A model generated the notes under the pieces. The model worked only from the letters and a program-made list of their open reading frames with translations, searched no databases and was not told the DNA's origin. Shown piece after piece: positions 10,215-46,994 of a stretch of DNA of 64,000 nt (its first letter is position 1; each line of letters opens with the position of its first letter). Both the position numbers and the translations under genes were made by a program. The DNA comes from Escherichia coli. Lineage in GTDB: Bacteria; Pseudomonadota; Gammaproteobacteria; Enterobacterales; Enterobacteriaceae. The stretch lies in NCBI RefSeq assembly GCF_965641715.1, contig NZ_OZ282453.1; one strand, written 5' to 3'.

Positions 10215-10223
10215 GCAATGGTT

Positions 10224-12665: not shown

Positions 12666-12670
12666 GTGAA

Positions 12671-16912: not shown

Positions 16913-16986
16913 TGCTTTAGTAAGGGCGTGACATTTGCGCCCTTTGCCTGATGTTCATATCTTAACTTGCTGAATTTTCGCCCTTT

Positions 16987-17021
16987 GTAGGCCGGATAAG
17001 GCGCTCGCGCCGCATCCGGCA
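16987..17021. repeat. REP element (GTAGGCCGGATAAGGCGCTCGCGCCGCATCCGGCA)
   Basis: canonical REP palindrome downstream of bglX. Confidence 0.75.
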
Positions 17022-17163
17022 GGAAACGCCGGACCGAATATGCCTCTTAAGTATTTATCTGATTCTGCAATTGAATCCGTCCGCTCAGGCTAACCCTGTC
17101 ATTATCAACTATGCTTTTCTCTTAATTCGCTGAAAACAACAGTAAAAGAATGAGGAAAGCATC

Positions 17164-18081: not shown

Positions 18082-18087
18082 TTTCCC

Positions 18088-19245: not shown

Positions 19246-20164
19246 ATTTAGCCATGTCAGCAAACTGTTCGGCACACAAAAAGCCGTTAACGATCTCAAT
19301 CTCAATTTTCAGGAAGGGAGTTTTTCGGTGCTGATTGGCACATCTGGCTCCGGCAAATCCACCACCCTGAAAATGATTAACCGCCTGGTGGAACATGACA
19401 GCGGAGAGATCCGCTTTGCCGGAGAAGAAATTCGCTCGCTGCCAGTACTGGAGTTGCGCCGCCGTATGGGCTATGCCATTCAATCTATTGGCCTGTTTCC
19501 CCACTGGAGCGTGGCACAAAACATTGCCACCGTGCCGCAATTACAAAAATGGTCGCGGGCGAGGATTGACGATCGTATCGACGAATTAATGGCGCTACTG
19601 GGGCTGGAGTCAAATTTACGTGAGCGTTATCCACATCAGCTTTCCGGTGGTCAGCAGCAACGTGTGGGAGTGGCGCGCGCACTGGCTGCCGATCCGCAAG
19701 TCTTACTGATGGATGAACCTTTTGGCGCACTGGACCCGGTAACGCGCGGCGCGTTGCAACAAGAGATGACGCGCATTCACCGTTTGCTGGGGCGTACCAT
19801 TGTGCTGGTCACTCATGATATTGATGAGGCGCTACGGCTGGCAGAACATCTGGTATTGATGGATCACGGTGAAGTGGTGCAGCAGGGGAATCCGCTGACG
19901 ATGCTGACTCGTCCGGCGAATGATTTTGTCCGCCAGTTTTTTGGACGTAGTGAACTGGGTGTGCGCCTGCTTTCGTTACGTAGTGTGGCGGATTACGTGC
20001 GTCGCGAAGAACGAGCAGAAGGTGAGGCACTGGCAGAAGAGATGACGCTACGCGATGCGCTCTCTCTGTTTGTCGCGCGGGGATGCGAGGTGCTGCCGGT
20101 GGTGAACACGCAGGGGCAGCCTTGCGGCACGCTGCATTTTCAGGATCTGCTGGAGGAGGCGTAA
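19238..20164 (+). CDS. yehX: ABC transporter ATPase with C-terminal CBS-like extension
   Basis: Walker [13 protein letters not shown] signature LSGGQQQRV, Walker B LLMDEP; 8-nt overlap with yehY. Confidence 0.9.
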
Positions 20165-28681: not shown

Positions 28682-30953
28682 GGAAAACTCCCCAGTGTTG
28701 CAGCGATGCCAGTGCCTGCTGTTCGAGTTGTTGATGATGTGCAATGGCTTGTGGTGGACAATGCAACGGCATTTGCAGTGCCGAAACGGGAAGTTGCGCC
28801 AGTTGATAATGTTCAAGCACCTGATGCGCCAGCGTCCCGCGTTCTCGTGGTGGTAGCCAGGCCATCGCCGCGCGTAAATCGGGCAGGGCATTGATAAAAT
28901 CGGCATCACTTAGTTGATTTAAATGACTGCTGAAACCGGCGATAAATGCCGGCTGACAGGCCAGTTGATGACGGGCTAATGCCAGCAAACCGTGCAGCGC
29001 TTCGCCGGATTGTGCCGGGAAAAACTGTGCCAGCATCGCCAGCGCCGCTTCGGCACTGGCGTTGGGATGTTCCAGACGCATCAGTGCGCCAAGAGCCGCG
29101 CCGCGATCCAGCGCCGGGGCATGAATCGCCTGACTGCGTCGCTCCAGTAAGGCTACCGCCGCAGAAAGCGAAACGCCGGGTAAATTAACGCCGCTATGTA
29201 GATCGCGCAGGATATGGCAAAGCGCCTGCCAGCTATGCAGGTGAGCGTGAAACTCCTTTTCATCCGGTTTGCCGTTGGATTCACACAGCCAGAGCGTGCG
29301 ATCGATAGCCGCGCATAACGTCGTTTGTAATATCTGCGCGCCTTGCATACCGCTAATTTCATCCTGCCGCCATAAGGCATATAGCACTTCCAGCGCCTGG
29401 CCCATTTCGGCAAATTGATTTTCCTGGGCGATTAATAATGTGAGTTGCTCCAGTAATTGTTGACTGAAGGACGCCAGACCCGCTAACGCCGCCTGGCTAA
29501 GACATGTGGTGATACTGCCGATTCCACCCGCGTCCAGCATATCGGCTTCTAATTTATGGCGTGCGGCTCCCTGGAGTGTTGCACCAAAGCAGGCGGCCTC
29601 AATCAATGCCGCATGCTGGCTAAGCGGGCGGGTTAATTTCCAGCGTTCTTCACCGTTGCCTGCAAGTGTCAGTGTGCTTCCCTGCTGGCGTACAATCCCT
29701 GGGATCTCCAGTATTGCCAGCCGATGCAGCACCTGGCTTTGCGCCAGCCCATCGGAGGTAAAGCGATTTAAGGTAAGCTCCGCCGGAAGAGAGATTGTGG
29801 TACGTTCCAGTTCGCAAGTGACATCTTTTGGCAGAGGCGGTTGTGGCGTGGAGGGGGCTAGTTTACCGAATCCGTCACCCGCTAATGTGTCTATCAACGT
29901 TAGCAGAATCGGATCGGTGTCGGGATGAATAACTCCGCGATAGCTCCATGGCAACGGCGCATTCAGGGCTTCTTTAATCAGCGAGCCTGCGAAGGCATCC
30001 AGCCAGTCAGTGCGTAACGGCAGTGTATGACCGCGCAACTGTGCCAGCGCCATCGCATGCAGATGAGCGGCAGCCATATCCGCGGTCGAAGCAGGCAACT
30101 TGTGCTGGCGCAAACGGGTAAGGATAGTTTTTAGCAGTTGTTCTCCCGCCTGCTGTAAGCCCCACTGCCAGCACCAGCTTTGCCAGACCGGGGCAGGCAT
30201 TCCTGAAAGGTATCCTGCCAGCGCATCAAGGCGCTTTTCACTGTAGGGTGTGAGATAACAACCTGTAACGGCATCTGCCAGCGAGGGCAATTCTGGCTTG
30301 TTAATGTCCTGCGGGCATTCGCGCCACATTTTTGCCAGTGCCGGAGCGTGCCAGCCACCGCAGACGACTAACACGTCGCCATTATTTTGCTGCACCGCCC
30401 ATGCAATCCAGCGAGCCATAAAGGCTTCGCGCTGACGATTGAGTGCATCGCCGGGGAAATCGCCCCGCAGTTGGGCAAAATAGTGCGCCAGTGCAGAGGG
30501 TAATGCAGTTTGCTGGCTTTCATCTTCGAACAAGTGATCCCACAGGGTGTCGCTGTTATCCATGCGGGTGGCACGCAGCAGCAAGGTCTGGCTTTCCTCT
30601 TGCGTATCAGGCGAATCGTCCTCTTCTTCACTCTGTGCCCAGCAAGGCAAATCGATGAAGTAAGTTTGTGCCTGAATACGACGAGCGGCTTGTAGCGCCT
30701 GCCACTCCGGCGAAAATTCAGCAAATGGCGTCCAGGCACCACGCCCGGGGGCTGCACCGTCCTGATACTGGCAATAACTGTAAATAGCTACCGGAAGCTG
30801 GTGGGCTAAAAACAGTTCGTCTACCCGGTCATTAAAATCAGCCGGGCCTTCAATCAACACGTATCGTGGCCGCTGGCTTTCGATTAACGATTTCACCAGC
30901 CGGGCGCAGGCCGGGCTATGATGCCGGATGCCGACAATTAACGGCTCGCTCAT
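28674..30953 (-). CDS. yehM: uncharacterised 759-aa protein YehM
   Basis: start at MSEPLIVGIRHH 10 nt after the yehL stop with GAGGAAAG RBS; no motif I can assign. Confidence 0.85.
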   Translation of the reverse strand: MSEPLIVGIRHHSPACARLVKSLIESQRPRYVLIEGPADFNDRVDELFLAHQLPVAIYSYCQYQDGAAPGRGAWTPFAEFSPEWQALQAARRIQAQTYFIDLPCWAQSEEEDDSPDTQEESQTLLLRATRMDNSDTLWDHLFEDESQQTALPSALAHYFAQLRGDFPGDALNRQREAFMARWIAWAVQQNNGDVLVVCGGWHAPALAKMWRECPQDINKPELPSLADAVTGCYLTPYSEKRLDALAGYLSGMPAPVWQSWCWQWGLQQAGEQLLKTILTRLRQHKLPASTADMAAAHLHAMALAQLRGHTLPLRTDWLDAFAGSLIKEALNAPLPWSYRGVIHPDTDPILLTLIDTLAGDGFGKLAPSTPQPPLPKDVTCELERTTISLPAELTLNRFTSDGLAQSQVLHRLAILEIPGIVRQQGSTLTLAGNGEERWKLTRPLSQHAALIEAACFGATLQGAARHKLEADMLDAGGIGSITTCLSQAALAGLASFSQQLLEQLTLLIAQENQFAEMGQALEVLYALWRQDEISGMQGAQILQTTLCAAIDRTLWLCESNGKPDEKEFHAHLHSWQALCHILRDLHSGVNLPGVSLSAAVALLERRSQAIHAPALDRGAALGALMRLEHPNASAEAALAMLAQFFPAQSGEALHGLLALARHQLACQPAFIAGFSSHLNQLSDADFINALPDLRAAMAWLPPRERGTLAHQVLEHYQLAQLPVSALQMPLHCPPQAIAHHQQLEQQALASLQHWGVFHV

Positions 30954-30963
30954 GCATCTTTCC

Positions 30964-32052
30964 TCACGGCAGGCGGTGGCGGGCTTGATAATAAGCCTGC
31001 CAGTGAGCTTCTTTATGTGTGGCGACACGCTGTTCGAAGTAACGGCGCAGGCGCGCGCGATCTTCTTCGTTATCTTTGACGATGGTTCCGGCAATACAGT
31101 CCACCAGGTCGGCAGGCTCCCCCGCACGATTCGCTAAAAACCAGGCGCGGACGCCCACGGCGTGGGCCACGTTCACGGCTTCAGCCGTGGACATAATCGC
31201 TGTTAGTGTATCCATTGACGTTTTCTTTTCGCCGTTGGCACGCAGATCGCGGAAGGTGCGGACCAGTAACTCCAGTACCGCGTCAGGCACTTTATGCGGA
31301 ATACCGCTATGGGCCAGCAAACGCGCCGAAGCACTGGCGACAAGCTCCAGCTCCTGGGCGAAATCCATAATCGGAAAGACAGTTTCAAAATCGAAGCGAC
31401 GCTTTAGCGCAGCACTCATTTCATTGACGCCGCGATCGCGGGTATTGGCAGTGGCAATAATATTAAAGCCTTCTCGCGCATAGAGCTGACTGGCTTCACC
31501 TGTGAGTTCCGGTACCGTCATCACCCTGTCAGAAAGCATACCTAACAGACAGTCTTGCACTTCCAGCGGTGTACGCGTTATCTCTTCAAAACGGACGATT
31601 TTGCCGTCGCGCATTCCCTGGTAAAGCGGGGCAGGGACCAGCGCTTCCGTTGATGGACCATGATTGATAAGCAGGGCGTAGTTCCAGCCGTACTTGATTT
31701 GATCTTCGGTAGTAGATGCGCCGCCCTGGATGGTTAACCCGGCATCGCCGCTAATAGCGGTTGCCAGTAATTCAGACAGGAGAGATTTTGCGGTGCCAGG
31801 TTCCCCCACCAACATCAAACCGCGTCCGGTGGCAAGAGTGACTAACATACGTTCGACAGCGGAGGGACTAATCACCACTTTACGGCTAATATTTTGCGCG
31901 CTATCGCCAAGGATAAAAGCACGGGCCGCAGGCAAACTTAACTGCCAACCGGGCGGGCAAGGTGCGTTATCATTTTGTTTTAATTTTGTCAGTTCATCGG
32001 CGTATAACACAGCAGCAGGCGGACGCTGCAGATGATTATTCTGCGGTGACAT
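30964..32052 (-). CDS. yehL: MoxR-like AAA+ ATPase YehL
   Basis: Walker A LVGEPGTAKS, Walker B-like IVRFEEI, sensor-1 IIATANT; start at MSPQNNHLQ. Confidence 0.85.
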   Translation of the reverse strand: MSPQNNHLQRPPAAVLYADELTKLKQNDNAPCPPGWQLSLPAARAFILGDSAQNISRKVVISPSAVERMLVTLATGRGLMLVGEPGTAKSLLSELLATAISGDAGLTIQGGASTTEDQIKYGWNYALLINHGPSTEALVPAPLYQGMRDGKIVRFEEITRTPLEVQDCLLGMLSDRVMTVPELTGEASQLYAREGFNIIATANTRDRGVNEMSAALKRRFDFETVFPIMDFAQELELVASASARLLAHSGIPHKVPDAVLELLVRTFRDLRANGEKKTSMDTLTAIMSTAEAVNVAHAVGVRAWFLANRAGEPADLVDCIAGTIVKDNEEDRARLRRYFEQRVATHKEAHWQAYYQARHRLP

Positions 32053-32161
32053 ATATTCATCCCTGAAATGTATTAATGAAATAAACGATATTTTACGCGC
32101 AATAAATGTTTGGCGCATTAGTTGTTTGAGCGAAAAATATCTGGAAAGCAGATCACAGTAA

Positions 32162-32680: not shown

Positions 32681-32998
32681 TTATTCTATTTCTTGGTTGA
32701 ATATATTCTGTAGTTCACGATTAAAAATTGCTATTACAGTTTCAGGTGATTCACCTCGTAATTTCCGCTCATCAATACACTCATCTCTTATATAAATCAA
32801 CGCATCATTTATTAGCGGGTCAGCATCTTCTCGATCACGTTGATGAAATGTTGGATGTAGCCGGAATCGCTCCAGTCGATAGACGGAACCTGTAAATAAT
32901 TCAGAGCATTTATGGACCTCAAGTCTGAAGGAAAACGGATCTTCAGGTACAGGGACCTCATAATCGTAAATAGCAACCAGCTCTTTTTGCACGATCAT
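32681..32998 (-). CDS. yehK: uncharacterised protein YehK
   Basis: 105-aa ORF between yehI and the toxin locus; translation matches remembered YehK. Confidence 0.8.
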   Translation of the reverse strand: MIVQKELVAIYDYEVPVPEDPFSFRLEVHKCSELFTGSVYRLERFRLHPTFHQRDREDADPLINDALIYIRDECIDERKLRGESPETVIAIFNRELQNIFNQEIE

Positions 32999-33058: not shown

Positions 33059-36000
33059 TTAATGGAAAATGACGTCAGGTGCGCTTAACGCCTCACTCAA
33101 ATCAAACACATCAAGTTCGGCAAAAGTGACGGATTTATTGTCACGGTACACTCGAAGAGAACGGAAGCTCATTAGCGCTTTGCTATCAACATTGTAGTGG
33201 TTAAAACCGGGTGAAAACTTAAGGACCAGCCGGTACTCACCCAGGTCATAGACAAATGCGTCCTCATAGCCTGACTCCCAGCCTTTGTATCGCATTCCCA
33301 TAAGTTGCCCAACGGTAGCGGATTTACCTTCCCAGCGAGTCAGGCTGTTACTGGTTGACTCGTCAGGTGTGAGCAGCACCGTGCGGCGCGACAACTGGCG
33401 AAAAGGCGGCATAATTTCGTAATCGGCAAAAAGCTGTGCAAATTCACTGCGCATTTCTGCTGTCATTTCTAACGGGTGGGCAATGCCAATCAGAGCATCC
33501 GCAGGAAGGTCAATGGGCTCATCCTGCGCATTGCAGAACTCCCCCTCTGCGGCCACACGAAAGGCGTTGAGTAAACGACGCGGTTCATTTGCCGGATAAA
33601 CCCCCCATATTAATCGCTGGGTAACCAGGCGGGTAAAGGGATGATTAACAAACAGAGAATGAAAATCTGCCAGCGACCAGCGTCGGGTGGTACGTAGGGC
33701 AGCTTCAAGACGCGGGAGCAGGTTTTTGCTCACCTGAGTAGCATCTTTTTTTAGCCCTTTTAGTCGGGCCAGTGCCTCGGGCGCTTTCAGTTGATCGTCA
33801 TCGGCACGCAACCGGGGAACACTTTTCTGGCGAACGTTTTGTTGATCAAAGATAACCGGGTTGAGGTTTTCATCGAAGCGAACGGTAAACTGCCGGGGAC
33901 CAAAATCAAAAATCAACGCCTGCGGATCATCAAGACCCAGTGTTGGGACTAATCTGTCCGCTAACTCTTCCTGGCTTAGCCCGCGATTTTCTGCGACCAC
34001 CTGAAGAAATTCCGCTGCGTTTTCACGTAATGAAGAGGATTTCGCCCGTTGTGATACATGATGCAGCTGTATCAGCGCCATATCATTATTCATCAAGGTA
34101 AGTATATTCAGACCAATGACAGCACGGGCAGATTTGCCTTCTTGTGGCCAGGCGAGGATCTGTGTCGTCAGATCCCGAGCCGTGCTTTCGTCACCAAAGA
34201 GACTTAACGCCAGAAATGCCCAGTTGTCTTTTGCGGGGGCACCAGCTTGTTGCCACGCAGTGAAGAGATCCCAGGCAAAAGCGGCCAGCGTTTGTGGCTG
34301 GCAAAACGTTTTCAGTTGTTCCAGACCGCTATAAAAACGTCCGCCCTGGGTAAAGCGCAGCATTTCGCCGATAATTTCCAGAGCGTCATCGGTAACAGGC
34401 TGATTATTAGTGATAAGTCGCGGCCTGGACCACATTGCCGGATGCCAGAAATCAGGGGCTTTTGGAATGCGTGCCGGGTAAATGTCCATTGGACCCTGTT
34501 TCAGTAAATGCTCCAGGGCAGGCCATACATCTGTACGCTGCCAGCGGTTTGCCACGGTTTGCAGCAATTCACCATGTCCCTGTTCGTAAAGTAAACGCAG
34601 GGCAAGTAATGCAGCTTCGCTATTATCGCTGGATTTGGTGAAGACAAGAGGGATAAGTGCAGTAGCCGTATGTTCCGGCCAATGTAAAATCCACTGGCGA
34701 GCCAGATCACGCTGCACCGCGAAACGTCGCCAGACGCGGGCAACGGGCAGGGCCAGTTCTGTTGCGCCAAAATTTAAAATTAACGGAAATGTTTCTTTTG
34801 GACGATGTAAAAAAGCCAACATCAGACCTGGTAGCGCATCCAACCCGAGGATACTGAGAAAATAGTCCTCACCCGCGAACAGATGTTTTTTCTCATTGAT
34901 ACGCAGCCAGAAGGTCAAAGCCATCTCACGCGGCAACTGTGCCAATAAATACAGGTTCCAGACACTCTTTTCCGGACGATAACGTGAGTAGTTGTCATTT
35001 TCCCATATGTTAATTAACGCTTCTATGTGACCGCTGCGGAGCGCCTGTTCTGCTAATTGTGCTTCCGGGGAGTTCCAGCCATTCAGGATCTCTTCAACCC
35101 GCCCCTGGTAGTAATGCCACTGAACAATGAGTGAATTGCGTGCAGCATCCAGTTTTCCGGGGAGTATATAATTCAGAAACAGCCATACATCATCCCCAAA
35201 ACCCAGTTCCTGTAATACAACTCGCCCACTTTTTTGTTCCATGCGTTCCGCAAGAGATTCCGTGCTGAAATAACGGGCAGACTCAGTGGAGGCAAGCCAC
35301 TCTTGTTCGCCTGGTTGCCAGTAAACTTGCGGGGTTAATTCGAGCGGTGCCAAATCAAGACGTGGAGCTGTCATTTTTTTCTTACTACGCCACGGTGGTG
35401 AAACGAGGATTTCAGGCAGATTGCTGTTATCGGTGCCATCAATAACCGGTTTGGGCGGTGCCAATAAATAACTATTCAGTACTGCCCGGGCTTGAGTACT
35501 TAACCACTGCATCACCTCTTCTGCCAGTTGTGGCTGCGATGCCATCAGCGTTTGTAACAGCGTACGCCAGTATTCATCGCGTGCTTTTTGCTGGGCAGGC
35601 AGCTTTTTGTCTTCGATGATTGGATAACCAGGGCGGGCTGGTGGTTCTTTTAACGCCAGCAGTTCTGCCAGTGCCGCGAGCGTCGCGTGGGGGAAGTTTT
35701 TACTGTATTTAGCCACACGTTGCAGGCTGGGTTTGTTTTTATCAGCCACCAGTAGCAAGGTGTGGATGACCTGCGGATGGTTAATTTGTACCAACAGACT
35801 GCCGCAATCTTCTTTATGGGCATACATCGCGAGGCGCGGAATGGCTGCCAGTCCTTGTTCGCGCAAAAGGGCGGCGCAGGCCGCGTAGCCGAAGTGGTTT
35901 TTTTGTGACATGTAGCTGGCTTCGCGATCGCTAAATACGTCCAGGCCCCAGTATCGTTCGAGTTTTTTTACCGCCGTATTATCAGTAGCAACGACCTTTA

Positions 36001-36691
36001 ACCACTCCTTTGAATGGAGACTTGACCGGGAGCTTTCAAGACTGGCGAGTTCATTGGCTATTTCAGGCTTTTCCGGGAGGATCAGCGCAATAAAAGGACG
36101 GCGAATTTTGGGTATTCCTGGCAGTGCGGCAATGAGTTTATCGGCACAACGCTGCCAGCAACTTTCCTCTGCCAGCGACAGATGCTTACGCAAACGGAGA
36201 TCGAAATCGTTATAGGTCGCGGAGCCATAACCGTAGCCATAGTCCTCGTCCTGATACTGCAATGTCACTACCAGAGGATCACTCTCATAACACCGCGCAA
36301 TAAACTGGCGTGCAATCACCACCTCAGTCGCATATTCCAGCCCCTCTTGTTGGACGATTTCGTCGAGCAACTGTTGGCTGTCATTTTGCGCGATACAGGC
36401 TAGCGCCGCCATTGTCCGGGCCGGGATTGAGGGTTTGTGTTCGCCGATCAAGTTGATGGCCTGCGTGATGGCGGACTGCCACTCCAGTGAAAAATTTTCA
36501 TAACGCCAGACAATGTTTTTTTTCTTCTCAGCTTTTTTTAGCAATTCATCACCCAGTGTCTGGATGAGGCTTTCAGTGATAACAGGCGCTGGTTCGCCCG
36601 GCCAATTGCGATGGCTGAGTGGTGTTTTACCCTTTTTATATTTCAGTTCCAGTTGGGCGTTATCAGCCAGCCACGGTAATTCCTTGTCCAT
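33059..36691 (-). CDS. yehI: giant DUF4132-type protein YehI (no WGR domain)
   Basis: 1210 aa; C-terminal ~350 aa shares conserved blocks with the two downstream paralogs (WAF.AL...GDESTAR, LDFGPRQFTV, ADYE..PPF). Confidence 0.88.
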   Translation of the reverse strand: MDKELPWLADNAQLELKYKKGKTPLSHRNWPGEPAPVITESLIQTLGDELLKKAEKKKNIVWRYENFSLEWQSAITQAINLIGEHKPSIPARTMAALACIAQNDSQQLLDEIVQQEGLEYATEVVIARQFIARCYESDPLVVTLQYQDEDYGYGYGSATYNDFDLRLRKHLSLAEESCWQRCADKLIAALPGIPKIRRPFIALILPEKPEIANELASLESSRSSLHSKEWLKVVATDNTAVKKLERYWGLDVFSDREASYMSQKNHFGYAACAALLREQGLAAIPRLAMYAHKEDCGSLLVQINHPQVIHTLLLVADKNKPSLQRVAKYSKNFPHATLAALAELLALKEPPARPGYPIIEDKKLPAQQKARDEYWRTLLQTLMASQPQLAEEVMQWLSTQARAVLNSYLLAPPKPVIDGTDNSNLPEILVSPPWRSKKKMTAPRLDLAPLELTPQVYWQPGEQEWLASTESARYFSTESLAERMEQKSGRVVLQELGFGDDVWLFLNYILPGKLDAARNSLIVQWHYYQGRVEEILNGWNSPEAQLAEQALRSGHIEALINIWENDNYSRYRPEKSVWNLYLLAQLPREMALTFWLRINEKKHLFAGEDYFLSILGLDALPGLMLAFLHRPKETFPLILNFGATELALPVARVWRRFAVQRDLARQWILHWPEHTATALIPLVFTKSSDNSEAALLALRLLYEQGHGELLQTVANRWQRTDVWPALEHLLKQGPMDIYPARIPKAPDFWHPAMWSRPRLITNNQPVTDDALEIIGEMLRFTQGGRFYSGLEQLKTFCQPQTLAAFAWDLFTAWQQAGAPAKDNWAFLALSLFGDESTARDLTTQILAWPQEGKSARAVIGLNILTLMNNDMALIQLHHVSQRAKSSSLRENAAEFLQVVAENRGLSQEELADRLVPTLGLDDPQALIFDFGPRQFTVRFDENLNPVIFDQQNVRQKSVPRLRADDDQLKAPEALARLKGLKKDATQVSKNLLPRLEAALRTTRRWSLADFHSLFVNHPFTRLVTQRLIWGVYPANEPRRLLNAFRVAAEGEFCNAQDEPIDLPADALIGIAHPLEMTAEMRSEFAQLFADYEIMPPFRQLSRRTVLLTPDESTSNSLTRWEGKSATVGQLMGMRYKGWESGYEDAFVYDLGEYRLVLKFSPGFNHYNVDSKALMSFRSLRVYRDNKSVTFAELDVFDLSEALSAPDVIFH

Positions 36692-36700
36692 GCTCTTTCC

Positions 36701-39700
36701 TTATTCAAACAGGGCTTCAATATCGTTAATTAGCTCGCTGGCGGTGATGGCATCGAGTACGGAGAGCTGCGCTTCCTGTATTGAATTACTCCCCCAGCCA
36801 TAGCTTTCCGCTTTGCCTTCCCATAGCCACAGCTTGCTTAAGAGTTGCTCGGCACTCAGTTCGGCTGGCGACATGCCTACCGCAAAGCCTTCATCGATTT
36901 CCATGATTAACGACCAGCGGCCCAGAGGTTTGATCATCCAGCCGATCCAGCCTCCATCCTGTGGTTCGCCCTTTATCCAGCCTTTATTCGCCAGCCCCAT
37001 TACCCGACCGCTCGGGCATTTTCTGCCTGCCCAGCGGGTCAGTTCGCTGGCATTGCGCTCGGTTTCTGTCAGGGCGTAACTGTTACGGTCGAGCTGGCGG
37101 AACGGCGGTAGCAGTTCGTAGTCGGCAAAAAGCTGCCCAAATGCGGCGGCATCCGTCGGTGATATTTCCAGAACGTGAGGAATACCAACAGAGATATCGC
37201 CTTCCGGCAGGGTGAAAAGATCATCGTCAGCGGTGCTGTAGCTGTTATCTTCCGCTACGCGGAAGCACGTCAGTAGCTGGTTTTCGGTGCTATAAACGCC
37301 CCAAATCAGACGGCGGGTTAAGTGGTGTACCAGTGGATGTTCAACCAGGAAGAGCTGAAAGTTTTCTGGCGACCAGCGGCGACGCAGGCACATGGCGGAT
37401 TCCAACCTTGCTACCTGCTGGGCGGCGACGGTACGCGCATCTTTTTTCAGCAGTTTGTAGCGGTTAACAGCATCGTTCGCCTGTGATTCATCATCGCTTT
37501 TGTTTGGTTTGGGCAGGTCTTTCAGACGGCTGCCGGAAGCGTCACGCACAAACGGTTTTAAGGTTTCATCAAAGCTGACGGTGAACTGGCGTGGGCCGAA
37601 ATCCAGCAGCAACGAACCGTTATCATCCAGACTGAGATCCGGTGCTAACCGATCTTCAAGCTCCGCCACTGTCAGTTCGCGACTTTCAGCAATGTCGGCA
37701 ATTTTCTCTTTCGCCCGCTCCTGTAAAGCTTTGAATTTCAGTTTCTGAGCAATGCCGTTAAGCTGCATCAGAGCGATATCACTACCGATAGCGGCGAGAA
37801 TATCCAACCCAACGGTGGCGCGTTTATGCTGAGATTCGCCAGGCCAGGCGCGTATTAATGGCGTCAGTTTGCGAGCGGTGTCGTCGTTACCGAGAACACA
37901 TAACGCAGTGAACGCCCAGCTTTCTTTCGATGGTGCACCCGTAGTCAGCCAGGCGGTAAACAGATCCCAGGCAAATTCAGCCAGTGAGTCGGCGGTACAG
38001 GCATCTTTCACCTGCAATAATCCCGGATACAGCGCCTCTTCCTGAGGGAAGCGGAGCATTTCACCGAGGTGGAGGAGGGCGTTATCTGGCAGTACCTTGC
38101 TGCTATTTTTGAGTTTTGGGCGAGTCCATAATGGAGGTTGATAAAACAACGGTAAAGGGGGGATTTTCGCCGGGTATTTACCCACAGGACTGTTGTCGTT
38201 ATTTTTATTTTGAGTTTCCCAGGGCGGCGAGACTAGTACCATTGGTAGAATTTCTGAGTTTGCAAAATCTTCATTGCGACTATTCAGCAATTGCTGACAT
38301 TGTTGCAATAAATTTGCCGCTTGCGACGATAATCCGATGACTAATTTTTCGACCAATAAAGGATTTGCATTAAGTAATGAAACCAGCAACGTATGTTTGC
38401 GTTTATCATCTTTTTTTACCAATTCTTCGGCTAATGCCGCTATCGTGGCAGAAGGAAAATTTTCGGCACTTTTTATTAGTCGTTCATAACAGCGTTTATT
38501 AGTATCGGCGGCTTCGATGAGTGCCGTAATGGCCAACGGATGATTAATACATTTCAGTACGTCACCGCAATTATCTTCTTCAGCATAGGAAGCCAGGCGA
38601 GCCAGTGCCGCTATACCTTGTTCCCGTAATACCGTAGCTGACCAACTGGCACCATAGGTGTTAAATACATCAATGTATTGATAGTTCTCCAGTATTTCGA
38701 GCGTGAATGGATCTGTCGCTACCAGTTTCAACATTTCAAGTTGTGGAACATCTGCGACCTGGTGTAAACGATGTACGATCTCATGGGCCACTTCGGGTAT
38801 TTCTGGCATTAAAATGGCAATTAACGGTTGGCGATAGAGTGATATATCTGGTAACGCAACGAGTAATTTTGCAATGCAATTTTGCCATACTTCTTCTTCT
38901 GCTAGTGATAAATGTTTACGCAGACGTAAACTAAATTTGTCGTTATTCCTTCTATAACTGTCCTTGCTGCTATCTGCATAATTAATAAAGAAAGTCAAAT
39001 GTTCATCTTTATAGTCAAAATCGAAATCAATTTGCCACCAGAAGATGACAGTTTCAGTTGCGTATTCGATACCGAAGGTGCTTACAATTTCATCCAGCAA
39101 CTCGGATGAGGTTTCATCATTCCAGCCCTGACAAAAACATATTTCCAGAAAAGTAAGTACCGCCATAGTACGCGCGGGTATCTCAGTCTTTTGGGCCTTA
39201 ATTAAGCTGATTGCCTGGCTAATCGCATCAGCCCATTCATCAGAGCATGAGCTGTAATCGAAAGTCAGATTTTTATAATAATGATAAGTACGATTTGCCA
39301 ATCGGGAAATTAAATTTTGTTTTTCGGGTTTGGTTGGTTTTTTAACTGGCTCTCCCGGCCAAAGGCGGTGGCTGAGGGCATGGCGGGCAATATTCGGGGG
39401 AAGAATAATGGGATCGTTGTCTGCCAGCCAGGGTAAACCATTAGTTGCTGCCTGGCGATTTATTGAGGCTTTTTCCTCTGTGACCAGGACTTTCTTTGCT
39501 GAGGCATCATGTGAGTGAGCGTTAGCGTCTACTTGCTCCACATACCCCTTCTTCACCTTCTCCGCAATCAGCTTCAGTTCCACTTTTTCCGCCGCCGCAG
39601 CATCTGCAAAGCTTTTTACCTGACTTTGCCCGTTAGTGCCGACTTTACCCCAGGTTATATGCAGCTCGTTTCCCTGCTGCTCCACCGCCCAGAATTTATG

Positions 39701-39733
39701 TGATTTTTCGTCCTGATAAATATAGGTTTTCAT
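36701..39733 (-). CDS. WGR-domain plus DUF4132 protein, 1010-aa paralog of MolR/YehI
   Basis: N-terminal WGR-like module (KFWAVEQQGNELHITWGKVGT) and C-terminal module about 75% identical to the molR-like product by eye. Confidence 0.85.
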   Translation of the reverse strand: MKTYIYQDEKSHKFWAVEQQGNELHITWGKVGTNGQSQVKSFADAAAAEKVELKLIAEKVKKGYVEQVDANAHSHDASAKKVLVTEEKASINRQAATNGLPWLADNDPIILPPNIARHALSHRLWPGEPVKKPTKPEKQNLISRLANRTYHYYKNLTFDYSSCSDEWADAISQAISLIKAQKTEIPARTMAVLTFLEICFCQGWNDETSSELLDEIVSTFGIEYATETVIFWWQIDFDFDYKDEHLTFFINYADSSKDSYRRNNDKFSLRLRKHLSLAEEEVWQNCIAKLLVALPDISLYRQPLIAILMPEIPEVAHEIVHRLHQVADVPQLEMLKLVATDPFTLEILENYQYIDVFNTYGASWSATVLREQGIAALARLASYAEEDNCGDVLKCINHPLAITALIEAADTNKRCYERLIKSAENFPSATIAALAEELVKKDDKRKHTLLVSLLNANPLLVEKLVIGLSSQAANLLQQCQQLLNSRNEDFANSEILPMVLVSPPWETQNKNNDNSPVGKYPAKIPPLPLFYQPPLWTRPKLKNSSKVLPDNALLHLGEMLRFPQEEALYPGLLQVKDACTADSLAEFAWDLFTAWLTTGAPSKESWAFTALCVLGNDDTARKLTPLIRAWPGESQHKRATVGLDILAAIGSDIALMQLNGIAQKLKFKALQERAKEKIADIAESRELTVAELEDRLAPDLSLDDNGSLLLDFGPRQFTVSFDETLKPFVRDASGSRLKDLPKPNKSDDESQANDAVNRYKLLKKDARTVAAQQVARLESAMCLRRRWSPENFQLFLVEHPLVHHLTRRLIWGVYSTENQLLTCFRVAEDNSYSTADDDLFTLPEGDISVGIPHVLEISPTDAAAFGQLFADYELLPPFRQLDRNSYALTETERNASELTRWAGRKCPSGRVMGLANKGWIKGEPQDGGWIGWMIKPLGRWSLIMEIDEGFAVGMSPAELSAEQLLSKLWLWEGKAESYGWGSNSIQEAQLSVLDAITASELINDIEALFE
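39665..39718. repeat. 54-bp segment identical to 43475-43528
   Basis: direct sequence comparison of the 5' coding ends of the two WGR paralogs. Confidence 0.85.
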
Positions 39734-39745
39734 TGTTAAATCCTT

Positions 39746-42700
39746 TTAATCAAACAGTGATTCAATGTCGTTAATCAGCTCGCTGGCGGTGATGTCGTCG
39801 AGCATGGAGAAAGTGGGTGAGGATTGTTTACCATAGCGATCATAAGGGGCGGTGATTTTTACGCTTTCGACAGGCAGCAGGTCGCTATACCCCGTTTCGC
39901 CATAAATTAATGAAAAAGGTTCCGTTTCAAGTTCGAGAGCACCATAAGGGGTAGATTTGCGCATCGCATAAACGCTGCCGCTTTCTTCCAGACGTTGCCA
40001 GCCTCGGCGTTCCAGCCCGACAATGCGTCCGGCCTGGCAGAGACGTCCGTTCCAGCGTGACAATTCATGGACATTACGTTCGTTATCAGCAAGGTGGTAA
40101 CTACCACGTTCGAGCTGTTGGAAAGGGGGAAGCAGTTCGTAATCAACGTAAATTTGCCTGAATGCAGCGGCGGATTCAGGGGGGATTTCCAGCACATGCG
40201 GTATACCGATGTTTCCTGCTGGCAGCGTGAATAACTCATCCTGCGCATCGCTGTAAGTGCTGTCTTCTGCCACGCGAAAACAGGTGATAAGAGCGTTTTC
40301 ATCGTTATAAACCCCCCATAACAGCCGTCGGGTTAAGTGACGTACCAGCGGATGCTCCACCAGAAACAGGCGGAACTGCTCTGCCGTCCAGCGTCTGCGC
40401 TGGCACATAGCCTGTTCCAGACGGGTAATATGCTGGCTGGCGATAGCACGAACATCTTTTTTCAACTGTTTGAAGAGATTAACTGCGTCAGTTGCCAGTG
40501 TTTTATCATCGCTCTGGTTTGGCTTAGGTAAATCTTTCAGGACTTTGCCGTTTGCATCGCACACTACAGGTTTTAAGGTTTCGTCAAAACCAACGGTGAA
40601 TTTGCGGGGGCCGAAATCCAGTATCAGCGAGCCACTGCTATCAAGCCCTAAATCTGGAGCCAGGCGGTCTTCCATTTCAGCCATAGTCAGCCCACGGTTT
40701 TCAGCAACTATGTTGATTTTCTCGCGGGCATGTTCCTGTAATGCTTTGAATTTAATTTTTCGCGCGATGCCATTAAGCAGCATTAGCGCAACATCGCTGC
40801 CAATATCAGCTAATACATCCAGCCCGGACACCGCCCGTTTATGCTGGGATTCCCCAGGCCAGGCGCGGATAAGCGGGGTTAATTTACGCGCGGTGTCGTC
40901 ATTGCCTAAAATCCCAAGCGAAGTAAATGCCCAGTTTTCTTTTGCGGGTGCGCCAGCTTCTGTCCAGGCGGTATACAGATCCCAGCCAAATTCAGCCAGT
41001 GATTCGCGGGTGAAGATTTCTCTAATGATATCCAGCCCAGCGTAGGCGGTAATGTCGCGAGGAAAGCTCAGCATAGTGCCGAGGTGGCGCATAGCGTCAT
41101 CTGACAGAGGCAGGTTGTTACTTTTAAGCCGTGGTCTGCGCCATAAGGTGAACTGATAAAAGCCGGGCAGTGGGGCGATTTTAGCGGGATATTCTTCCAG
41201 CGGCTCGCTATCAAATAATGTTGCCAGCGCAGCTAAAACATCAGGTTGGTTATACCCCTGGGCGATTTCTTCAATCGTTTCTCGCTGGTTTAAATTCACC
41301 AGCAGACGAAGCGCCTGGCGGGCACAATCACGATCTTTTCCTTTTTTGCCCAAGGCCACAGGAAGTAGCCCGGCGGCAGCATGGCGTGGGAAGTTAGCCA
41401 GCCATTTTCGAGCATCTTCAGCAGACATTTTTTTCTGTAATCGCTGCGCCATCGGTAATGCTAATTCGCTGACGCCCAGGAAGAGGGTGAATATCCATAA
41501 CTGTTGTGGCTTACGTTGCAGACATTTCATAAACGCAGGAATGGCCGCATCACCAAAAATCGCCAGAATTTCTCTCTCGCCGGAGAATTGCTCTTCATTA
41601 ATTATTTGATTGAGAAAAGAAATAGCATGCTGAGTGGGTAGGAAGCAGAGCGCGTACAACTGCCAGTGTCTGCTTCCTTTGTTATGGTATTGCGCAAACT
41701 CGGCTTTCAGCGCGGGGAAATCGAAACGTAACAGGGCATCAACTGCGCTTTGTGGCATTATTTTTTTTTCGTATTGTTCTTCTCCGGTTCTGCGCCATTC
41801 CTTAAACCCCAGTCGCCAAAGGATTTGCTGTTCTGGCGTTAAAGGGATGAAAGACGTTTCCCAGCGTTCTTTTTTTATCGGTGGCAGGTCGGTAAATAAG
41901 GTTTGCTGTGATGCCTGATATTGCGCGATTTCACTGAATCTGGATATGTCAGTATGACTGATTAACTCTGTAATTCCTGGTGTGATATCCGTGACGGCAG
42001 GAATGGGAAGTACCGGTAAATCAAATACGGGTATGACATTCTTTTTCTTATTTATTACCCACGGTGGAGCGACAAGCAGCTCCGGCAACATATCCACAGT
42101 GGCATATTCACATTCTTCAGCTACTGGCAGCGGACGACATTCAGATAAGATGCCTGCCGCCTTAGCATTAACCCAGGGAATGACCTCGCATACTAACTCT
42201 GGCGTGGCGGTAATCAGTTTGACAAGCGCTTTACGCCACTCATTATTTTCATGTATTGCCAGCAAAGTAGCATAAGCGGCAATAGCCGCAGCGGGATGTT
42301 TTTGGCAGGCTTTGCTTAAGTATTCCAGGTGCTTTTTCTTGCCATTTACACCGAGGATCAGAATTTGAATCGCATCCGGGTGATTCGTTTTCCATAGCCA
42401 TTTGACAAGATCTTCAGTCTCGCTGATACGCTCGAAGAGATAAGTGGGATTGTCAGAATGCTCTTCCGTAAACTCAAGAAGTATCCGGCTTACACCGCGC
42501 ACCCCATTATTTGCCAGCAACATTGCCAGATAAGCGCGAAAATCATGATACAACGGTGGGAAGTCGTATTTTTCTGCTGTAGTCAGAGCGGCGTCATCGG
42601 TTACCACCAGTCTTAACCAGGTCATCGCCGGAACGTTTTGATCTGCATAACGTAGCGCCATAGCATTGGCAATATCCGGGCGTTCAGGGAGCAGTAACGC

Positions 42701-43543
42701 CGCAAAAGGTTGTCGTGCTGGGGATAGCGAGGGAATAGCAGCGAGTACTTTATCTACACAGCGTTGCCACTCATCTTCTGAAGCGAGTGAAAGATGATGA
42801 CATAGACGTTGATGCCAACTCGGTAGCGATTCTGCTTCGTGATTAGGTGGAATGATGGTGGTTACTGCGCCTTTTACTGGTTTATATTTGAGTTGAAGAG
42901 CGAGAAGGGCGATTTCAACGGCACTTTCCAGACCACAGCGAATGACTAAGTCATCGACCAGTTCATCTTGAGAGTAAGAGTTCCAAAAGCCCCAGAGCAA
43001 TGCTGCATCAGATTGCGCACTCCCTGTCGGTTGATTACCCTTAACTCGCATTTGTAACTCAGCAAAAGCCTGCTGCCAGTTTTCTGGATAAGAGCGGTAA
43101 TTGTTGTCGGGATCATATGCCCTGGTGTTATTCGCGATGCGCTTCCATATTTGGCCATCTTTGTACAGATAATTGATCTCTCTGGGGCGAGAGCGATGAG
43201 GAAAAGCAAATCGATTAATATCGTCAGTGACCGGAATGACTGCATCATCAGCCAGCCAGGGGCGTTGGTTTTTACTCTCAGGGGAAGTTTCAACTTCAGG
43301 AGTGGCTTTGGTAATGGGGGGGATATGCACGTTTGCTGAAGCATTTTCCACATAGCCTTTTTTCGTTTTCTCCGCGATAAGCTTCAGTTTCGCTTTTTCC
43401 GCTGCTGCAACATCAGCAAAATTTTTTACCTGGCTTTGCCCTTGGGTACCAACTTTTCCCCAGCTGATATGCAACTCGTTTCCCTGCTGCTCCACCGCCC
43501 AGAATTTATGTGATTTTTCGTCCTGATAGATAAAGTGTCTCAT
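39746..43543 (-). CDS. molR: WGR-domain plus DUF4132 protein, full length (MolR-like)
   Basis: 1265-aa uninterrupted ORF; N-terminal WGR (KFWAVEQQGNELHISWGKVGT); position directly downstream of metG. Confidence 0.85.
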   Translation of the reverse strand: MRHFIYQDEKSHKFWAVEQQGNELHISWGKVGTQGQSQVKNFADVAAAEKAKLKLIAEKTKKGYVENASANVHIPPITKATPEVETSPESKNQRPWLADDAVIPVTDDINRFAFPHRSRPREINYLYKDGQIWKRIANNTRAYDPDNNYRSYPENWQQAFAELQMRVKGNQPTGSAQSDAALLWGFWNSYSQDELVDDLVIRCGLESAVEIALLALQLKYKPVKGAVTTIIPPNHEAESLPSWHQRLCHHLSLASEDEWQRCVDKVLAAIPSLSPARQPFAALLLPERPDIANAMALRYADQNVPAMTWLRLVVTDDAALTTAEKYDFPPLYHDFRAYLAMLLANNGVRGVSRILLEFTEEHSDNPTYLFERISETEDLVKWLWKTNHPDAIQILILGVNGKKKHLEYLSKACQKHPAAAIAAYATLLAIHENNEWRKALVKLITATPELVCEVIPWVNAKAAGILSECRPLPVAEECEYATVDMLPELLVAPPWVINKKKNVIPVFDLPVLPIPAVTDITPGITELISHTDISRFSEIAQYQASQQTLFTDLPPIKKERWETSFIPLTPEQQILWRLGFKEWRRTGEEQYEKKIMPQSAVDALLRFDFPALKAEFAQYHNKGSRHWQLYALCFLPTQHAISFLNQIINEEQFSGEREILAIFGDAAIPAFMKCLQRKPQQLWIFTLFLGVSELALPMAQRLQKKMSAEDARKWLANFPRHAAAGLLPVALGKKGKDRDCARQALRLLVNLNQRETIEEIAQGYNQPDVLAALATLFDSEPLEEYPAKIAPLPGFYQFTLWRRPRLKSNNLPLSDDAMRHLGTMLSFPRDITAYAGLDIIREIFTRESLAEFGWDLYTAWTEAGAPAKENWAFTSLGILGNDDTARKLTPLIRAWPGESQHKRAVSGLDVLADIGSDVALMLLNGIARKIKFKALQEHAREKINIVAENRGLTMAEMEDRLAPDLGLDSSGSLILDFGPRKFTVGFDETLKPVVCDANGKVLKDLPKPNQSDDKTLATDAVNLFKQLKKDVRAIASQHITRLEQAMCQRRRWTAEQFRLFLVEHPLVRHLTRRLLWGVYNDENALITCFRVAEDSTYSDAQDELFTLPAGNIGIPHVLEIPPESAAAFRQIYVDYELLPPFQQLERGSYHLADNERNVHELSRWNGRLCQAGRIVGLERRGWQRLEESGSVYAMRKSTPYGALELETEPFSLIYGETGYSDLLPVESVKITAPYDRYGKQSSPTFSMLDDITASELINDIESLFD
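43475..43528. repeat. 54-bp segment identical to 39665-39718
   Basis: direct sequence comparison. Confidence 0.85.
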
Positions 43544-43640
43544 TCTGCATCCCTGTAATTTTATCCAGTTGAATGCAGATGCTACCAGTATTTATGCGGG
43601 TTAGAGAGAGACAAAATCGTAAGAAAACAACTTTAGGAAT

Positions 43641-43674
43641 TTATAAAGAAAAGGCGCTGTCGATGCAGCGCCTT
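43641..43674 (-). terminator. intrinsic terminator downstream of metG
   Basis: perfect 9-bp inverted repeat AAGGCGCTG / CAGCGCCTT followed on the minus strand by a T-rich tract. Confidence 0.7.
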
Positions 43675-43683
43675 GAAGGGGGA

Positions 43684-45717
43684 TTATTTCACCTGATGAC
43701 CCGGTTTAGCACCAGCATCCGGGCTTAGCAGGAAAATATCTTTCCCGCCAGGACCGGCAGCCATCACCATGCCTTCGGAGATACCGAAGCGCATTTTACG
43801 TGGTGCCAGGTTAGCCACCATAATGGTGTGACGACCAATCAGTACCTGCGGATCCGGGTAAGCAGAACGAATGCCAGAGAAGACATTGCGTTTTTCACCG
43901 CCGAGATCCAGCGTCAGGCGCAGCAGTTTGTCAGAACCTTCAACAAACTCTGCGTTTTCAATCAGCGCCACGCGCAGGTCAACTTTAGCGAAGTCGTCAA
44001 AGGTGATGGTTTCCTGAATCGGATCATCTGCCAGCGGGCCAGTTACCGGCGCGGCAGCTGCTTTCACTTCTTCTTTAGACGCTTCCACCAGTGCTTCAAC
44101 CTGCTTCATATCTATGCGGTTATACAGCGCCTTGAACGGATTCACTTTATGGCCCAGCAGCGGTTGCTGGATACCATCCCAGGTCAGTTCCGTATTCAGG
44201 AATGCTTCTGCGCGCTCGGTCAGTTTCGGCAGTACCGGCTTCAGGTAAGTCATCAGCACGCGGAACAGGTTTATGCCCATCGAGCAAATTGCCTGCAGGT
44301 CAGCATCGCGGCCTTCCTGTTTCGCCACCACCCACGGAGCCTGTTCATCGACATAGCGGTTAGCCAGATCAGCCAGCGCCATGATTTCGCGCACTGCTTT
44401 ACCAAATTCGCGGCTTTCCCACGCTTCACCAATCACTTCAGCGGCATCAGTGAAGGTTTTGTACAACTGCGGGTCAGCCAGTTCGCTTGCCAGCACGCCG
44501 TCAAAACGCTTGTTGATAAAGCCCGCATTACGAGAGGCCAGGTTAACCACTTTGTTAACGATATCGGCATTCACGCGCTGAACGAAATCTTCCAGGTTGA
44601 GATCGATATCATCAATGCGCGAAGAGAGTTTCGCAGTGTAGTAGTAACGCAGGCTGTCGGCGTCAAAATGATTCAGCCAGGTGCTGGCCTTAATAAAGGT
44701 GCCACGAGACTTAGACATCTTCGCGCCATTCACCGTCACATAGCCGTGAACAAACAGGTTGGTCGGCTTGCGGAAGTTGCTGCCTTCCAACATGGCAGGC
44801 CAGAACAGACTGTGGAAGTAAACGATGTCTTTGCCGATGAAGTGATACAGCTCAGCGGTGGAATCTTTCTTCCAGTATTCATCGAAGTTTACAGTGTCGC
44901 CGCGCTTGTCGCACAGATTCTTGAAAGAACCCATGTAGCCAATCGGTGCGTCCAGCCAGACGTAGAAGTATTTGCCCGGCGCGTTCGGAATTTCGAAACC
45001 GAAGTACGGTGCATCTCGGGAGATATCCCACTGTTGCAGGCCGGATTCAAACCATTCCTGCATTTTGTTGGCCACCTGCTCCTGCAACGCGCCGCTGCGA
45101 GTCCATGCCTGCAACATTTCGCTGAAAGAGGGCAGATCAAAGAAGAAGTGTTCGGAATCACGCATTACCGGCGTAGCGCCAGAAACCACCGATTTTGGTT
45201 CGATCAATTCAGTCGGGCTATATGTTGCGCCGCAGACTTCACAGTTATCGCCGTATTGATCCGGCGATTTACATTTCGGGCAGGTACCTTTCACAAAACG
45301 GTCCGGCAGGAACATGCCTTTTTCCGGATCGTACAGTTGAGAGATGGTGCGGTTTTTAATAAAACCGTTCTCTTTCAGGCGGCTGTATATAAGCTCCGAC
45401 AGCTGACGGTTCTCTTCGCTGTGCGTAGAGTGGTAATTGTCGTAGCTGATGTTAAAGCCTGCGAAATCAGTCTGATGTTCCTGACTCATTTCGCCAATCA
45501 TCTGCTCCGGGGTGATACCAAGCTGCTGAGCTTTCAGCATGATTGGCGTACCGTGGGCATCGTCGGCGCAGATGAAGTTGACTTCGTGGCCGCGCATTCG
45601 CTGGTAACGGACCCAGACATCAGCCTGGATGTGCTCCAGCATATGGCCGAGGTGGATTGAGCCGTTGGCGTACGGCAGTGCGCACGTTACCAGAATTTTC
45701 TTCGCGACTTGAGTCAT
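43684..45717 (-). CDS. metG: methionyl-tRNA synthetase
   Basis: start at [26 protein letters not shown] (HIGH-type motif), KMSKS present, zinc knuckle CPKCKS..CEVCG. Confidence 0.95.
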
Positions 45718-45884
45718 AGTAGGCATTACTTCTTTGTAGTGAAAAGGGCTTAGATAGTACCAAATGGGGCATGGTTACGTAAGTCCTGTGCAAGCATCTT
45801 ATGATGCATTATTAGGTAAGTACTTAGCTGTTAACTTCAGGTAAACTAATAGCGATAAGTTATCTTTATAAATAAGGAGTCGGG

Positions 45885-46994
45885 ATGAACGAACAATCCC
45901 AGGCCAAATCACCAGAAGCCTTGCGCGCAATGGTCGCCGGGACACTGGCCAATTTTCAGCACCCAACCCTGAAGCATAACCTCACCACGCTGAAAGCGTT
46001 GCACCATGTCGCCTGGATGGACGACACGTTGCATGTGGAACTGGTTATGCCATTCGTCTGGCATAGCGCGTTTGAAGAGTTAAAAGAGCAATGTAGCGCC
46101 GAACTGCTGCGTATCACCGGGGCGAAAGCTATCGACTGGAAACTGTCGCACAATATCGCCACCTTAAAACGCGTGAAGAATCAGCCGGGTATTAATGGCG
46201 TGAAGAACATCATTGCGGTCAGTTCCGGTAAAGGCGGCGTGGGTAAATCCTCCACGGCGGTAAACCTGGCGCTGGCACTGGCGGCGGAAGGGGCGAAAGT
46301 CGGTATTCTGGACGCCGATATCTACGGCCCATCAATTCCCACCATGCTGGGCGCAGAAAATCAGCGTCCAACTTCGCCGGACGGTACCCATATGGCACCG
46401 ATTATGTCTCATGGCCTGGCAACCAATTCAATTGGTTATCTGGTCACTGACGACAATGCGATGGTGTGGCGTGGACCGATGGCGAGCAAGGCGTTAATGC
46501 AGATGTTGCAGGAAACCTTGTGGCCGGATCTCGACTATCTGGTGCTTGATATGCCGCCAGGCACCGGTGACATTCAATTGACGCTGGCGCAGAACATTCC
46601 GGTAACTGGTGCAGTCGTGGTCACCACCCCGCAGGACATCGCGTTGATCGATGCGAAAAAAGGCATTGTGATGTTCGAGAAAGTCGAGGTTCCGGTGCTC
46701 GGTATTGTCGAGAACATGAGTGTGCATATTTGTAGTAACTGTGGTCACCATGAACCGATTTTCGGTACCGGTGGTGCAGAGAAACTGGCTGAAAAATACC
46801 ATACACAGCTGCTGGGGCAGATGCCGTTACACATCTCCTTACGTGAGGATCTCGATAAAGGCACGCCAACGGTTATCAGCCGTCCGGAGAGCGAATTTAC
46901 CGCTATCTACCGCCAGCTGGCTGACCGCGTTGCAGCTCAGCTCTACTGGCAGGGTGAAGTTATTCCAGGCGAGATTTCCTTCCGCGCGGTCTAA
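45885..46994 (+). CDS. apbC: Fe-S cluster carrier ATPase ApbC/Mrp
   Basis: 369 aa; P-loop SGKGGVGKSS; CxxC motif (CSNCGH). Confidence 0.93.
   Translation: MNEQSQAKSPEALRAMVAGTLANFQHPTLKHNLTTLKALHHVAWMDDTLHVELVMPFVWHSAFEELKEQCSAELLRITGAKAIDWKLSHNIATLKRVKNQPGINGVKNIIAVSSGKGGVGKSSTAVNLALALAAEGAKVGILDADIYGPSIPTMLGAENQRPTSPDGTHMAPIMSHGLATNSIGYLVTDDNAMVWRGPMASKALMQMLQETLWPDLDYLVLDMPPGTGDIQLTLAQNIPVTGAVVVTTPQDIALIDAKKGIVMFEKVEVPVLGIVENMSVHICSNCGHHEPIFGTGGAEKLAEKYHTQLLGQMPLHISLREDLDKGTPTVISRPESEFTAIYRQLADRVAAQLYWQGEVIPGEISFRAV

Follow-up and report, generated by a model that had tools for sequence, protein, structure and literature searches.

K-12 molR, and with it the single gene that ~70% of Escherichia coli genomes carry between yehI and metG, is a fusion of the start of one WGR-DUF4132 paralog to the body of another. 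Both paralogs stand intact and in tandem in the stretch analyzed here, 64,000 nucleotides (nt) of an E. coli genome (contig NZ_OZ282453.1, assembly GCF_965641715.1; hereafter, the window), as the metG-proximal gene C and its downstream neighbor, gene B. They share an exact 54-bp repeat near their 5′ ends, which appears to be the most conserved core of a ~200-bp head, coding for the WGR domain, that is common to these tandem genes. Very probably, the head has been exchanged between the genes by conversion, and past deletions from head to head fused the start of C to a downstream body.

The single gene as a C-head::B-body fusion

In each of the seven single genes sequenced, the body was of B type. 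The K-12 gene is 93.5% identical to gene B of strain 2013C-4282 over all 3796 nt, vs. ~70% to gene C (DUF4132), and the 3′ 1478 nt of gene B in the window are 92% identical to it. The starts of these genes are of the other type: all seven sampled single genes begin with the 15 nt characteristic of C (ATGAGACACTTTATC or ATGAAACACTTTATC), and every B gene in multi-gene strains begins with ATGAAAACCTATATT. An artificial query that joined the metG-side spacer to a B start reached at best 96.2% identity (five head differences), a B-type start thus being found beside that spacer in 0 of 5410 genomes; the gene next to metG hence starts as C in every case. The gap from metG to the first gene is 140 bp in single-gene and two-gene strains alike. 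In K-12, molR (yehG/yehH, b2115-b2117) is annotated as a disrupted ‘molybdate metabolism regulator’ pseudogene; it lies at the same locus between yehI and metG and has the C-type start of the window, but consists of one frameshifted gene where the window has two intact ones. The K-12 molR promoter is activated by BglJ-RcsB (PMC3950696). In the literature we found no report of molR as a chimera of two paralogs or of copy-number variation (1-4) of DUF4132/molR genes.

Two-parent models, which leave 6-10 mismatches, placed all junctions of the single genes within the head (nt 15-167; Table 1), where B and C align in frame, gap-free and without indels. The K-12-type junction lies outside the 54-bp tract, ~100 nt downstream of it, and that of MEI003 may cover the tract. 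The heads are direct repeats ~3.8 kb apart and in phase, so a crossover between the C head and a later head would delete the intervening DNA, and it would leave an in-frame chimera with the promoter and start of C on the downstream body. For the window, the predicted head-to-head product is an intact, in-frame open reading frame (ORF) of 1010 amino acids (aa) after a loss of 3810 bp.

A second class of head-to-head chimera was found in strain 06-00048, whose metG-proximal gene combines a C-type start (MRHFIF) with the body of a further paralog, g3. This rarer allele (C-head::third-paralog) would likewise have arisen by head-to-head deletion. Klebsiella provides a parallel case outside Escherichia: in K. 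grimontii the metG spacer leads directly into one B-bodied gene, and K. oxytoca and K. spallanzanii have C and B. In Intestinirhabdus alba (4059-7877 of its locus), the single gene right after metG has a WGR head and a YehI-like body (55% aa identity over residues 7-1209 of yehI). Either yehI had a head ancestrally and this gene retains it, or a head was fused to yehI with loss of the other paralogs.

Copy number was profiled in 5,426 complete E. coli genomes. A junction of C tail and B head was detected in 1,629 of them (~30% with C and B), and the remaining ~70%, including K-12, BL21, S88 and O104:H4, have one gene between yehI and metG. The initial annotation, made from the window sequence, had proposed that the repeats are substrates for deletion and could explain copy-number differences between strains; these classes and the chimeric structure of the sequenced single genes bear it out. 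Strain GF4-3 has four tandem WGR-DUF4132 genes (C, the further paralogs g2 and g3, and B; 4259-19438 of its locus), and g3-type DNA occurs in only 5 of the 5,426 genomes. The spacer is 12 nt between every neighboring pair in arrays of two to four genes. The extra genes of four-gene arrays are distinct paralogs, not B-head::C-body chimeras. Products of tail-to-tail deletion (C-only strains) were not evident in this collection, in which 1643 genomes have C-specific DNA vs. the 1,629 with the C/B junction. One apparent partial C was rejected as such a product, being an IS1-mediated deletion.

The lengths of perfect identity differ between the two ends of the genes, with runs of 20-54 bp between heads (168 bp in GF4-3) and of 11-29 bp between tails. 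The minimal processing segment for RecA/RecBC recombination is quoted as 23-27 bp (PMC12074656), and the head runs, being near or above this minimum, are of sufficient homology length. The short tail runs and the missing tail-to-tail products would fit a dependence on homology length.

A programmed switch, with the repeats as targets of a site-specific recombinase or a diversity-generating element (phase or antigenic variation), would be in keeping with direct repeats that flank a complete gene-sized unit and with a hyperdiverse locus of one to four copies. We consider it very unlikely, as the junctions differ among alleles and are spread over ~150 nt with no fixed crossover site, and the repeats are ordinary in-phase coding sequence. 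No recombinase or reverse transcriptase is among the cluster genes examined (AAA_5, DUF5682, VWA, SWIM and DUF4132), and PADLOC returned no hits for the three paralogs and yehL/M/P/Q. We know of no link to antigenic variation or surface exposure for the cytoplasmic-looking WGR-DUF4132 proteins.

A shared head on ancient paralogs

The two 54-bp segments (39665-39718 and 43475-43528, both in minus-strand genes) form an exact direct repeat, as first described, and 54 bp is the longest exact match. In B as in C, identity breaks off at gene nt 15 on one side and at nt 70 on the other, the copies thus being nt 16-69 of each, spaced 3810 bp (3 x 1270) apart. In the same codon phase in B and C, the tract covers codons 6-23 and encodes YQDEKSHKFWAVEQQGNE. 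It is included in the WGR domain (Pfam PF05406; residues 6/7-69), which scored 63.2 bits in B and 65.2 bits in C vs. a cut-off of 22.

Nucleotide alignment of B and C showed that divergence is uneven, with identity raised to 84% over the first ~198 nt and to 86% over the last 65 nt. The flanks of the repeat had been described as 80-85% identical, which applies to the immediate flanks only (79% at nt 70-198, 67% at nt 1-15); beyond nt ~200 identity is 35-50%, and the DUF4132 regions are ~70% identical. A ~30-bp block common to the 3′ ends, also reported at the outset, was located at 36723-36749 and 39768-39794 as TCGTTAAT[T/C]AGCTCGCTGGCGGTGATG, inside the 65-nt end block. Overall, the genes are ~50% identical at the aa level and 57% at the nt level; the middles are barely alignable, and C has ~265 extra residues.

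The 54-bp repeat exceeds chance expectation. With the 32 differences of the 198-nt homologous head placed at random, an identical run of at least 54 bp would arise with P = 4e-4. B and C agree at all 17 degenerate codons of the tract, vs. 218 of 448 in the rest of the gene (background 0.49; P = 4.8e-6 raw, ~2e-3 window-corrected; Fisher 1e-5) and 18 of 35 in the remaining WGR domain (Fisher P = 3e-4).

Tandem genes with the same domain order could be young copies, the tracts being the remnant of a formerly uniform identity. Such a recent duplication is refuted, and its probability negligible, given the low overall identity with unalignable middles and the separate C and B orthologs in Klebsiella and other Escherichia species. 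The C-B-yehI order also occurs in E. whittamii, Escherichia sp. E1V33, K. oxytoca and K. spallanzanii (beside metG or with the gene order alone conserved). A tree built from the final 1200 nt groups the sequences by paralog, with a B clade, which holds every single-gene allele, and a C clade, each with Escherichia and Klebsiella members. The duplication of C and B is thus older than the Escherichia-Klebsiella split.

The head has a different history. In a tree of nt 16-200, the B, C and single genes of Escherichia fall together, apart from the B-type sequences of Klebsiella and from Erwinia. Over nt 70-160, the distance between B and C is 0.13 within Escherichia and 0.19 within Klebsiella, vs. 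0.28 between Escherichia and Klebsiella for B and likewise 0.28 for C; paralogs within the Escherichia lineage (0.13) are thus closer than orthologs between lineages (0.28), as concerted evolution expects. All distances are low in nt 16-69 (0.07-0.12), which are therefore weakly informative on this point. Among 12 B and 12 C sequences from Escherichia, B and C share 19 polymorphisms over nt 16-160 and are separated there by 0 fixed differences; in the last 65 nt they share 11 and have 2 fixed, vs. 59 shared and 253 fixed in the gene body (1102 nt; Fisher P = 2e-13 for the head and 1e-6 for the tail).

Individual genes carry traces of the same exchange. Gene C of CB8671 resembles B over nt 71-140, and gene C of the window, although 98% identical overall to its nearest relative, ABW_A19, has 19 differences from it within the first 200 nt, where a uniform spread would give 4.6. 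In strain GF4-3, the neighboring genes g3 and g4 are exactly identical over nt 1-168, with bodies that are 76% identical. We conclude that the head evolves in concert through gene conversion between B and C, whereas the body keeps its paralog identity. The earlier interpretation of the identity islands as marks of gene conversion, and of deletion, is thus supported by population and cross-species data, with the caveats given below. On this interpretation, B and C would be ancient paralogs with hypervariable middles, whose heads, and to a lesser extent their 65-nt tails, are kept alike by recurrent ectopic conversion.

Purifying selection on the WGR N-terminal peptide, together with limits that codon bias or translation initiation set on codon choice near the mRNA 5′ end, might produce the repeat with no exchange of DNA. 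The peptide DEKSHKFW is indeed invariant in WGR proteins from Enterobacterales to Bacteroidota, Bacillota and Planctomycetota, so that only synonymous change is possible there, and the position of the tract reflects this extremely conserved peptide. With synonymous change alone accumulating in a near-invariant segment, the longest perfect runs would form in it. The distant taxa keep the peptide yet vary its codons freely, by which a universal nucleotide-level constraint is rejected. Within Escherichia, too, the tract is not frozen: 20 of its 54 sites are polymorphic, and synonymous change is tolerated. An Rfam scan of 36000-44000 (E <= 1) gave no match and hence no known RNA element in the tract. 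Selection alone also leaves unexplained the absence of fixed differences in nt 16-160, the shared polymorphisms, the largely by-genus clustering of heads, the mosaic patches, the 168-bp identity in GF4-3, and the chimeric single genes. As the sole cause of the head pattern it is largely refuted, and we regard it as an unlikely account.

Several observations weigh against conversion and head-to-head deletion as the whole explanation, and some of them are what selection would predict. The tract diverges by 0.09-0.12 between Escherichia and Klebsiella orthologs, vs. 0.28 in the adjacent head (nt 70-160), and selection does contribute to its conservation. Pairs of B and C from the same genome are no closer than all pairs (0.072 vs. 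0.077 in nt 16-69; 0.126 vs. 0.137 in nt 70-160), from which it follows that conversion is too infrequent to homogenize each genome. In the window pair itself, synonymous divergence over nt 70-198 is like that of the gene body (the 18 of 35 identical codons noted above). Both tract copies of the window are the commonest haplotype, found in 3 of 11 B and 3 of 12 C genes, and its perfect identity may be merely two copies of that haplotype. In the head tree, C of K. oxytoca adjoins the Escherichia group and not the Klebsiella B sequences; the grouping by genus is thus incomplete, and it rests on this single Klebsiella C sequence.

The deletion history meets objections of its own, beginning with the mismatches left by the two-parent models. 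None of the single-gene alleles is nearly identical to a sampled B gene (92-93% for the K-12 type; for S88 at most 96.5%, reached over only part of the gene), and the deletions are therefore old or their parents unsampled. The reciprocal duplication product, B-head::C-body, was not found, with ~12 extra head copies in the collection left out of this search. RecA-type homologous recombination would account for the events; this, like their direction and number, is inferred from sequence patterns.

With these points considered, conversion of the head together with head-to-head deletion remains the reading we favor. The perfect 54-bp identity is peculiar to the window strain, as in each of 11 further genomes examined that have both genes (K. 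oxytoca and 10 Escherichia) the tract copies mismatch at 1-7 positions; it is best read as the modal haplotype in both copies, with selection keeping the segment slow and exchange keeping it shared. It is no proof of very recent conversion in this genome. Exchange is seen on the population time-scale and in individual strains (the 168 bp of GF4-3), not as a general within-genome homogeneity.

Layout and diversity of the metG-yehI array

The WGR-DUF4132 array and yehI belong to a same-strand cluster (25545-32118, 32681-32998 and 33059-43543) that also includes a 105-aa ORF at the position of yehK and yehL/M/P/Q-like genes (Table 1). Beyond yehI, the cluster proteins are of MoxR/VWA type: AAA_5 (yehL-like; a MoxR-like YehL), DUF5682 (yehM-like), VWA_CoxE (yehP-like) and SWIM (yehQ-like). 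A PDB search matched solely the WGR part of 2ra8, NCBIfam gave only a sub-threshold match of the WGR region to a Leptospira family, and our literature search found no paper linking MoxR, VWA, SWIM and WGR.

Table 1 Features of the WGR-DUF4132 array in the window (first 12 rows) and junctions of single-gene alleles (in gene coordinates)
Feature	Position	Strand	Description
metG	43684-45726	-	adjoins the gene C side
metG-C intergenic region	43544..43683	-	next gene start always C-type; homologous to the promoter region of molR in K-12
Gene C	39746..43543	-	1265 aa, WGR + DUF4132, metG-proximal, start MRHFIY; ORF and Pfam
Gene C head	43346..43543	-	first 198 nt, WGR-coding, 84% identical to the B head; homology/conversion zone
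54-bp repeat, gene C copy	43475..43528	-	nt 16-69, codons 6-23, YQDEKSHKFWAVEQQGNE; exact match to the B copy; within the WGR domain
Gene C tail	39746..39810	-	last 65 nt, ending in ITASELINDIESLFD and stop; 86% identical to the B tail
C-stop/B-start spacer	39734..39745	-	12 nt, AAGGATTTAACA; AAGGA is a putative Shine-Dalgarno sequence
Gene B	36701..39733	-	1010 aa, WGR + DUF4132, short allele; ORF and Pfam
Gene B head	39536..39733	-	first 198 nt, WGR-coding
54-bp repeat, gene B copy	39665..39718	-	gene nt 16-69, codon phase as in the C copy
Gene B tail	36701..36765	-	last 65 nt, ending in ITASELINDIEALFE and stop
yehI	33059..36691	-	1210 aa, DUF4132 only; third paralog, without head, at the array end
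Junction, K-12 type (commonest single-gene allele)	gene nt 159-167		
Junction, S88	gene nt 102-153		
Junction, BL21	gene nt 102-145		
Junction, MEI003	gene nt 15-69 or 135-145		

The array is a repeated target of mobile elements. In SY3626 (5288-5985 of its locus), IS1 adjoins a truncated C, and the locus lacks the remainder of C together with B, yehI and yehK; in MB53 (13267-15367 of its locus), IS1 and ISVsa5 truncate the array. Gene B of RM14516 is split by an unannotated gap of ~1.35 kb, probably an insertion (3236-4592 of its locus), and 06-00048 has the same layout. The resistance transposon TnMB1860 (blaCTX-M-15) has been reported inserted in this region in ST131 (PMC9334617). The paralogs are often pseudogenes, with B and C both broken in the O157:H7 strain NE 1169-1, the single gene carrying a frameshift in K-12 and an internal stop in 05_3471, and yehI broken in 06-00048 and MB53. 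This points to genes that are dispensable or at times selected against.

E. coli has no fewer than three strongly differing alleles of the middle of gene B (nt 203-1558), with gene lengths of 3033, 3762 and 3795 nt; over nt 203-1500, the mean pairwise identity among strains is 71% and the minimum 50%. The short form is also found in Escherichia sp. E1V33, and the polymorphism of the B middle therefore crosses species boundaries. The housekeeping genes on the array side, metG and apbC (45885-46994), are unusually diverse as well. Across 16 sequences, from 15 E. coli loci plus the window, identity over the last 1500 nt of metG averages 96%, with a minimum of 93.9%. The metG and apbC of the window are at most 96.9% identical to any complete genome, but an origin outside E. 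coli is rejected, as the sampled E. coli differ as much from one another in metG. The two genes match below 95% identity in 1,296 records (1,083 at 90-95% and 213 at 80-90%), and 221 matches are on plasmid records. WGR heads that are Escherichia- or enterobacterial-like at the nucleotide level were also found on a 433-nt contig labeled Xanthobacter autotrophicus (coverage 0.78) and on 445-nt contigs labeled Prolixibacteraceae; these short, low-coverage contigs are probably contamination in their assemblies.

Such hyperdiversity hints at diversifying selection on an uncharacterized system. A bolder proposal, which we hold to be doubtful, is that the head, the 12-nt spacer and the tail (ITASELINDIE…) form a recombination-handle module for deleting, swapping, converting and exchanging hypervariable cassettes between strains in an array of one to four copies. 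The metG-yeh region would then owe its place among the most polymorphic loci of the E. coli chromosome to diversifying selection on a system that the WGR-DUF4132 proteins constitute with YehL/YehM/YehP/YehQ, e.g., an uncataloged conflict or immunity system.

The fusion explains the oddity of molR in K-12, which is not simply a decayed gene but joins the start of one paralog to the body of another, in a species where two-gene, four-gene and other chimeric haplotypes coexist. It also provides a clean bacterial example in which a short domain-coding segment evolves in concert between diverged tandem genes and sets the sites of copy-number change. Pan-genome and annotation pipelines will mis-cluster the genes of the metG-yeh region, a hyperdiverse locus to which searches assign no function, unless the chimerism is recognized.

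Comparison with known systems

Concerted evolution by gene conversion is known in bacteria from tufA/tufB of Salmonella, the babA/babB chimeras of Helicobacter pylori and the opa and pil loci of Neisseria. As in these systems, the converted segment of B and C is closer between the paralogs of a lineage than between orthologs of different lineages, and shared polymorphisms and mosaic tracts are present. Unlike the tuf genes, which are homogenized over their whole length, B and C are homogenized at their two ends only, and their middles are hypervariable.

Lepore-type fusions arise by unequal homologous recombination between tandem paralogs, the examples being hemoglobin Lepore (delta-beta) and the red/green opsin hybrids. 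The molR locus resembles them in that the paralogs are direct repeats, a crossover in the common segment would delete the DNA between, copy number is polymorphic, and the upstream gene gives its promoter and 5′ end to an in-frame chimera whose body comes from the downstream gene. It differs in being bacterial, in a homology limited to a ~200-bp head of genes that are otherwise ~50% identical, and in that the fused allele is the majority state and the reciprocal (anti-Lepore) product was not found. The metG-yehI array is thus a new and well-documented case of a known kind of process, concerted evolution combined with Lepore-type fusion.

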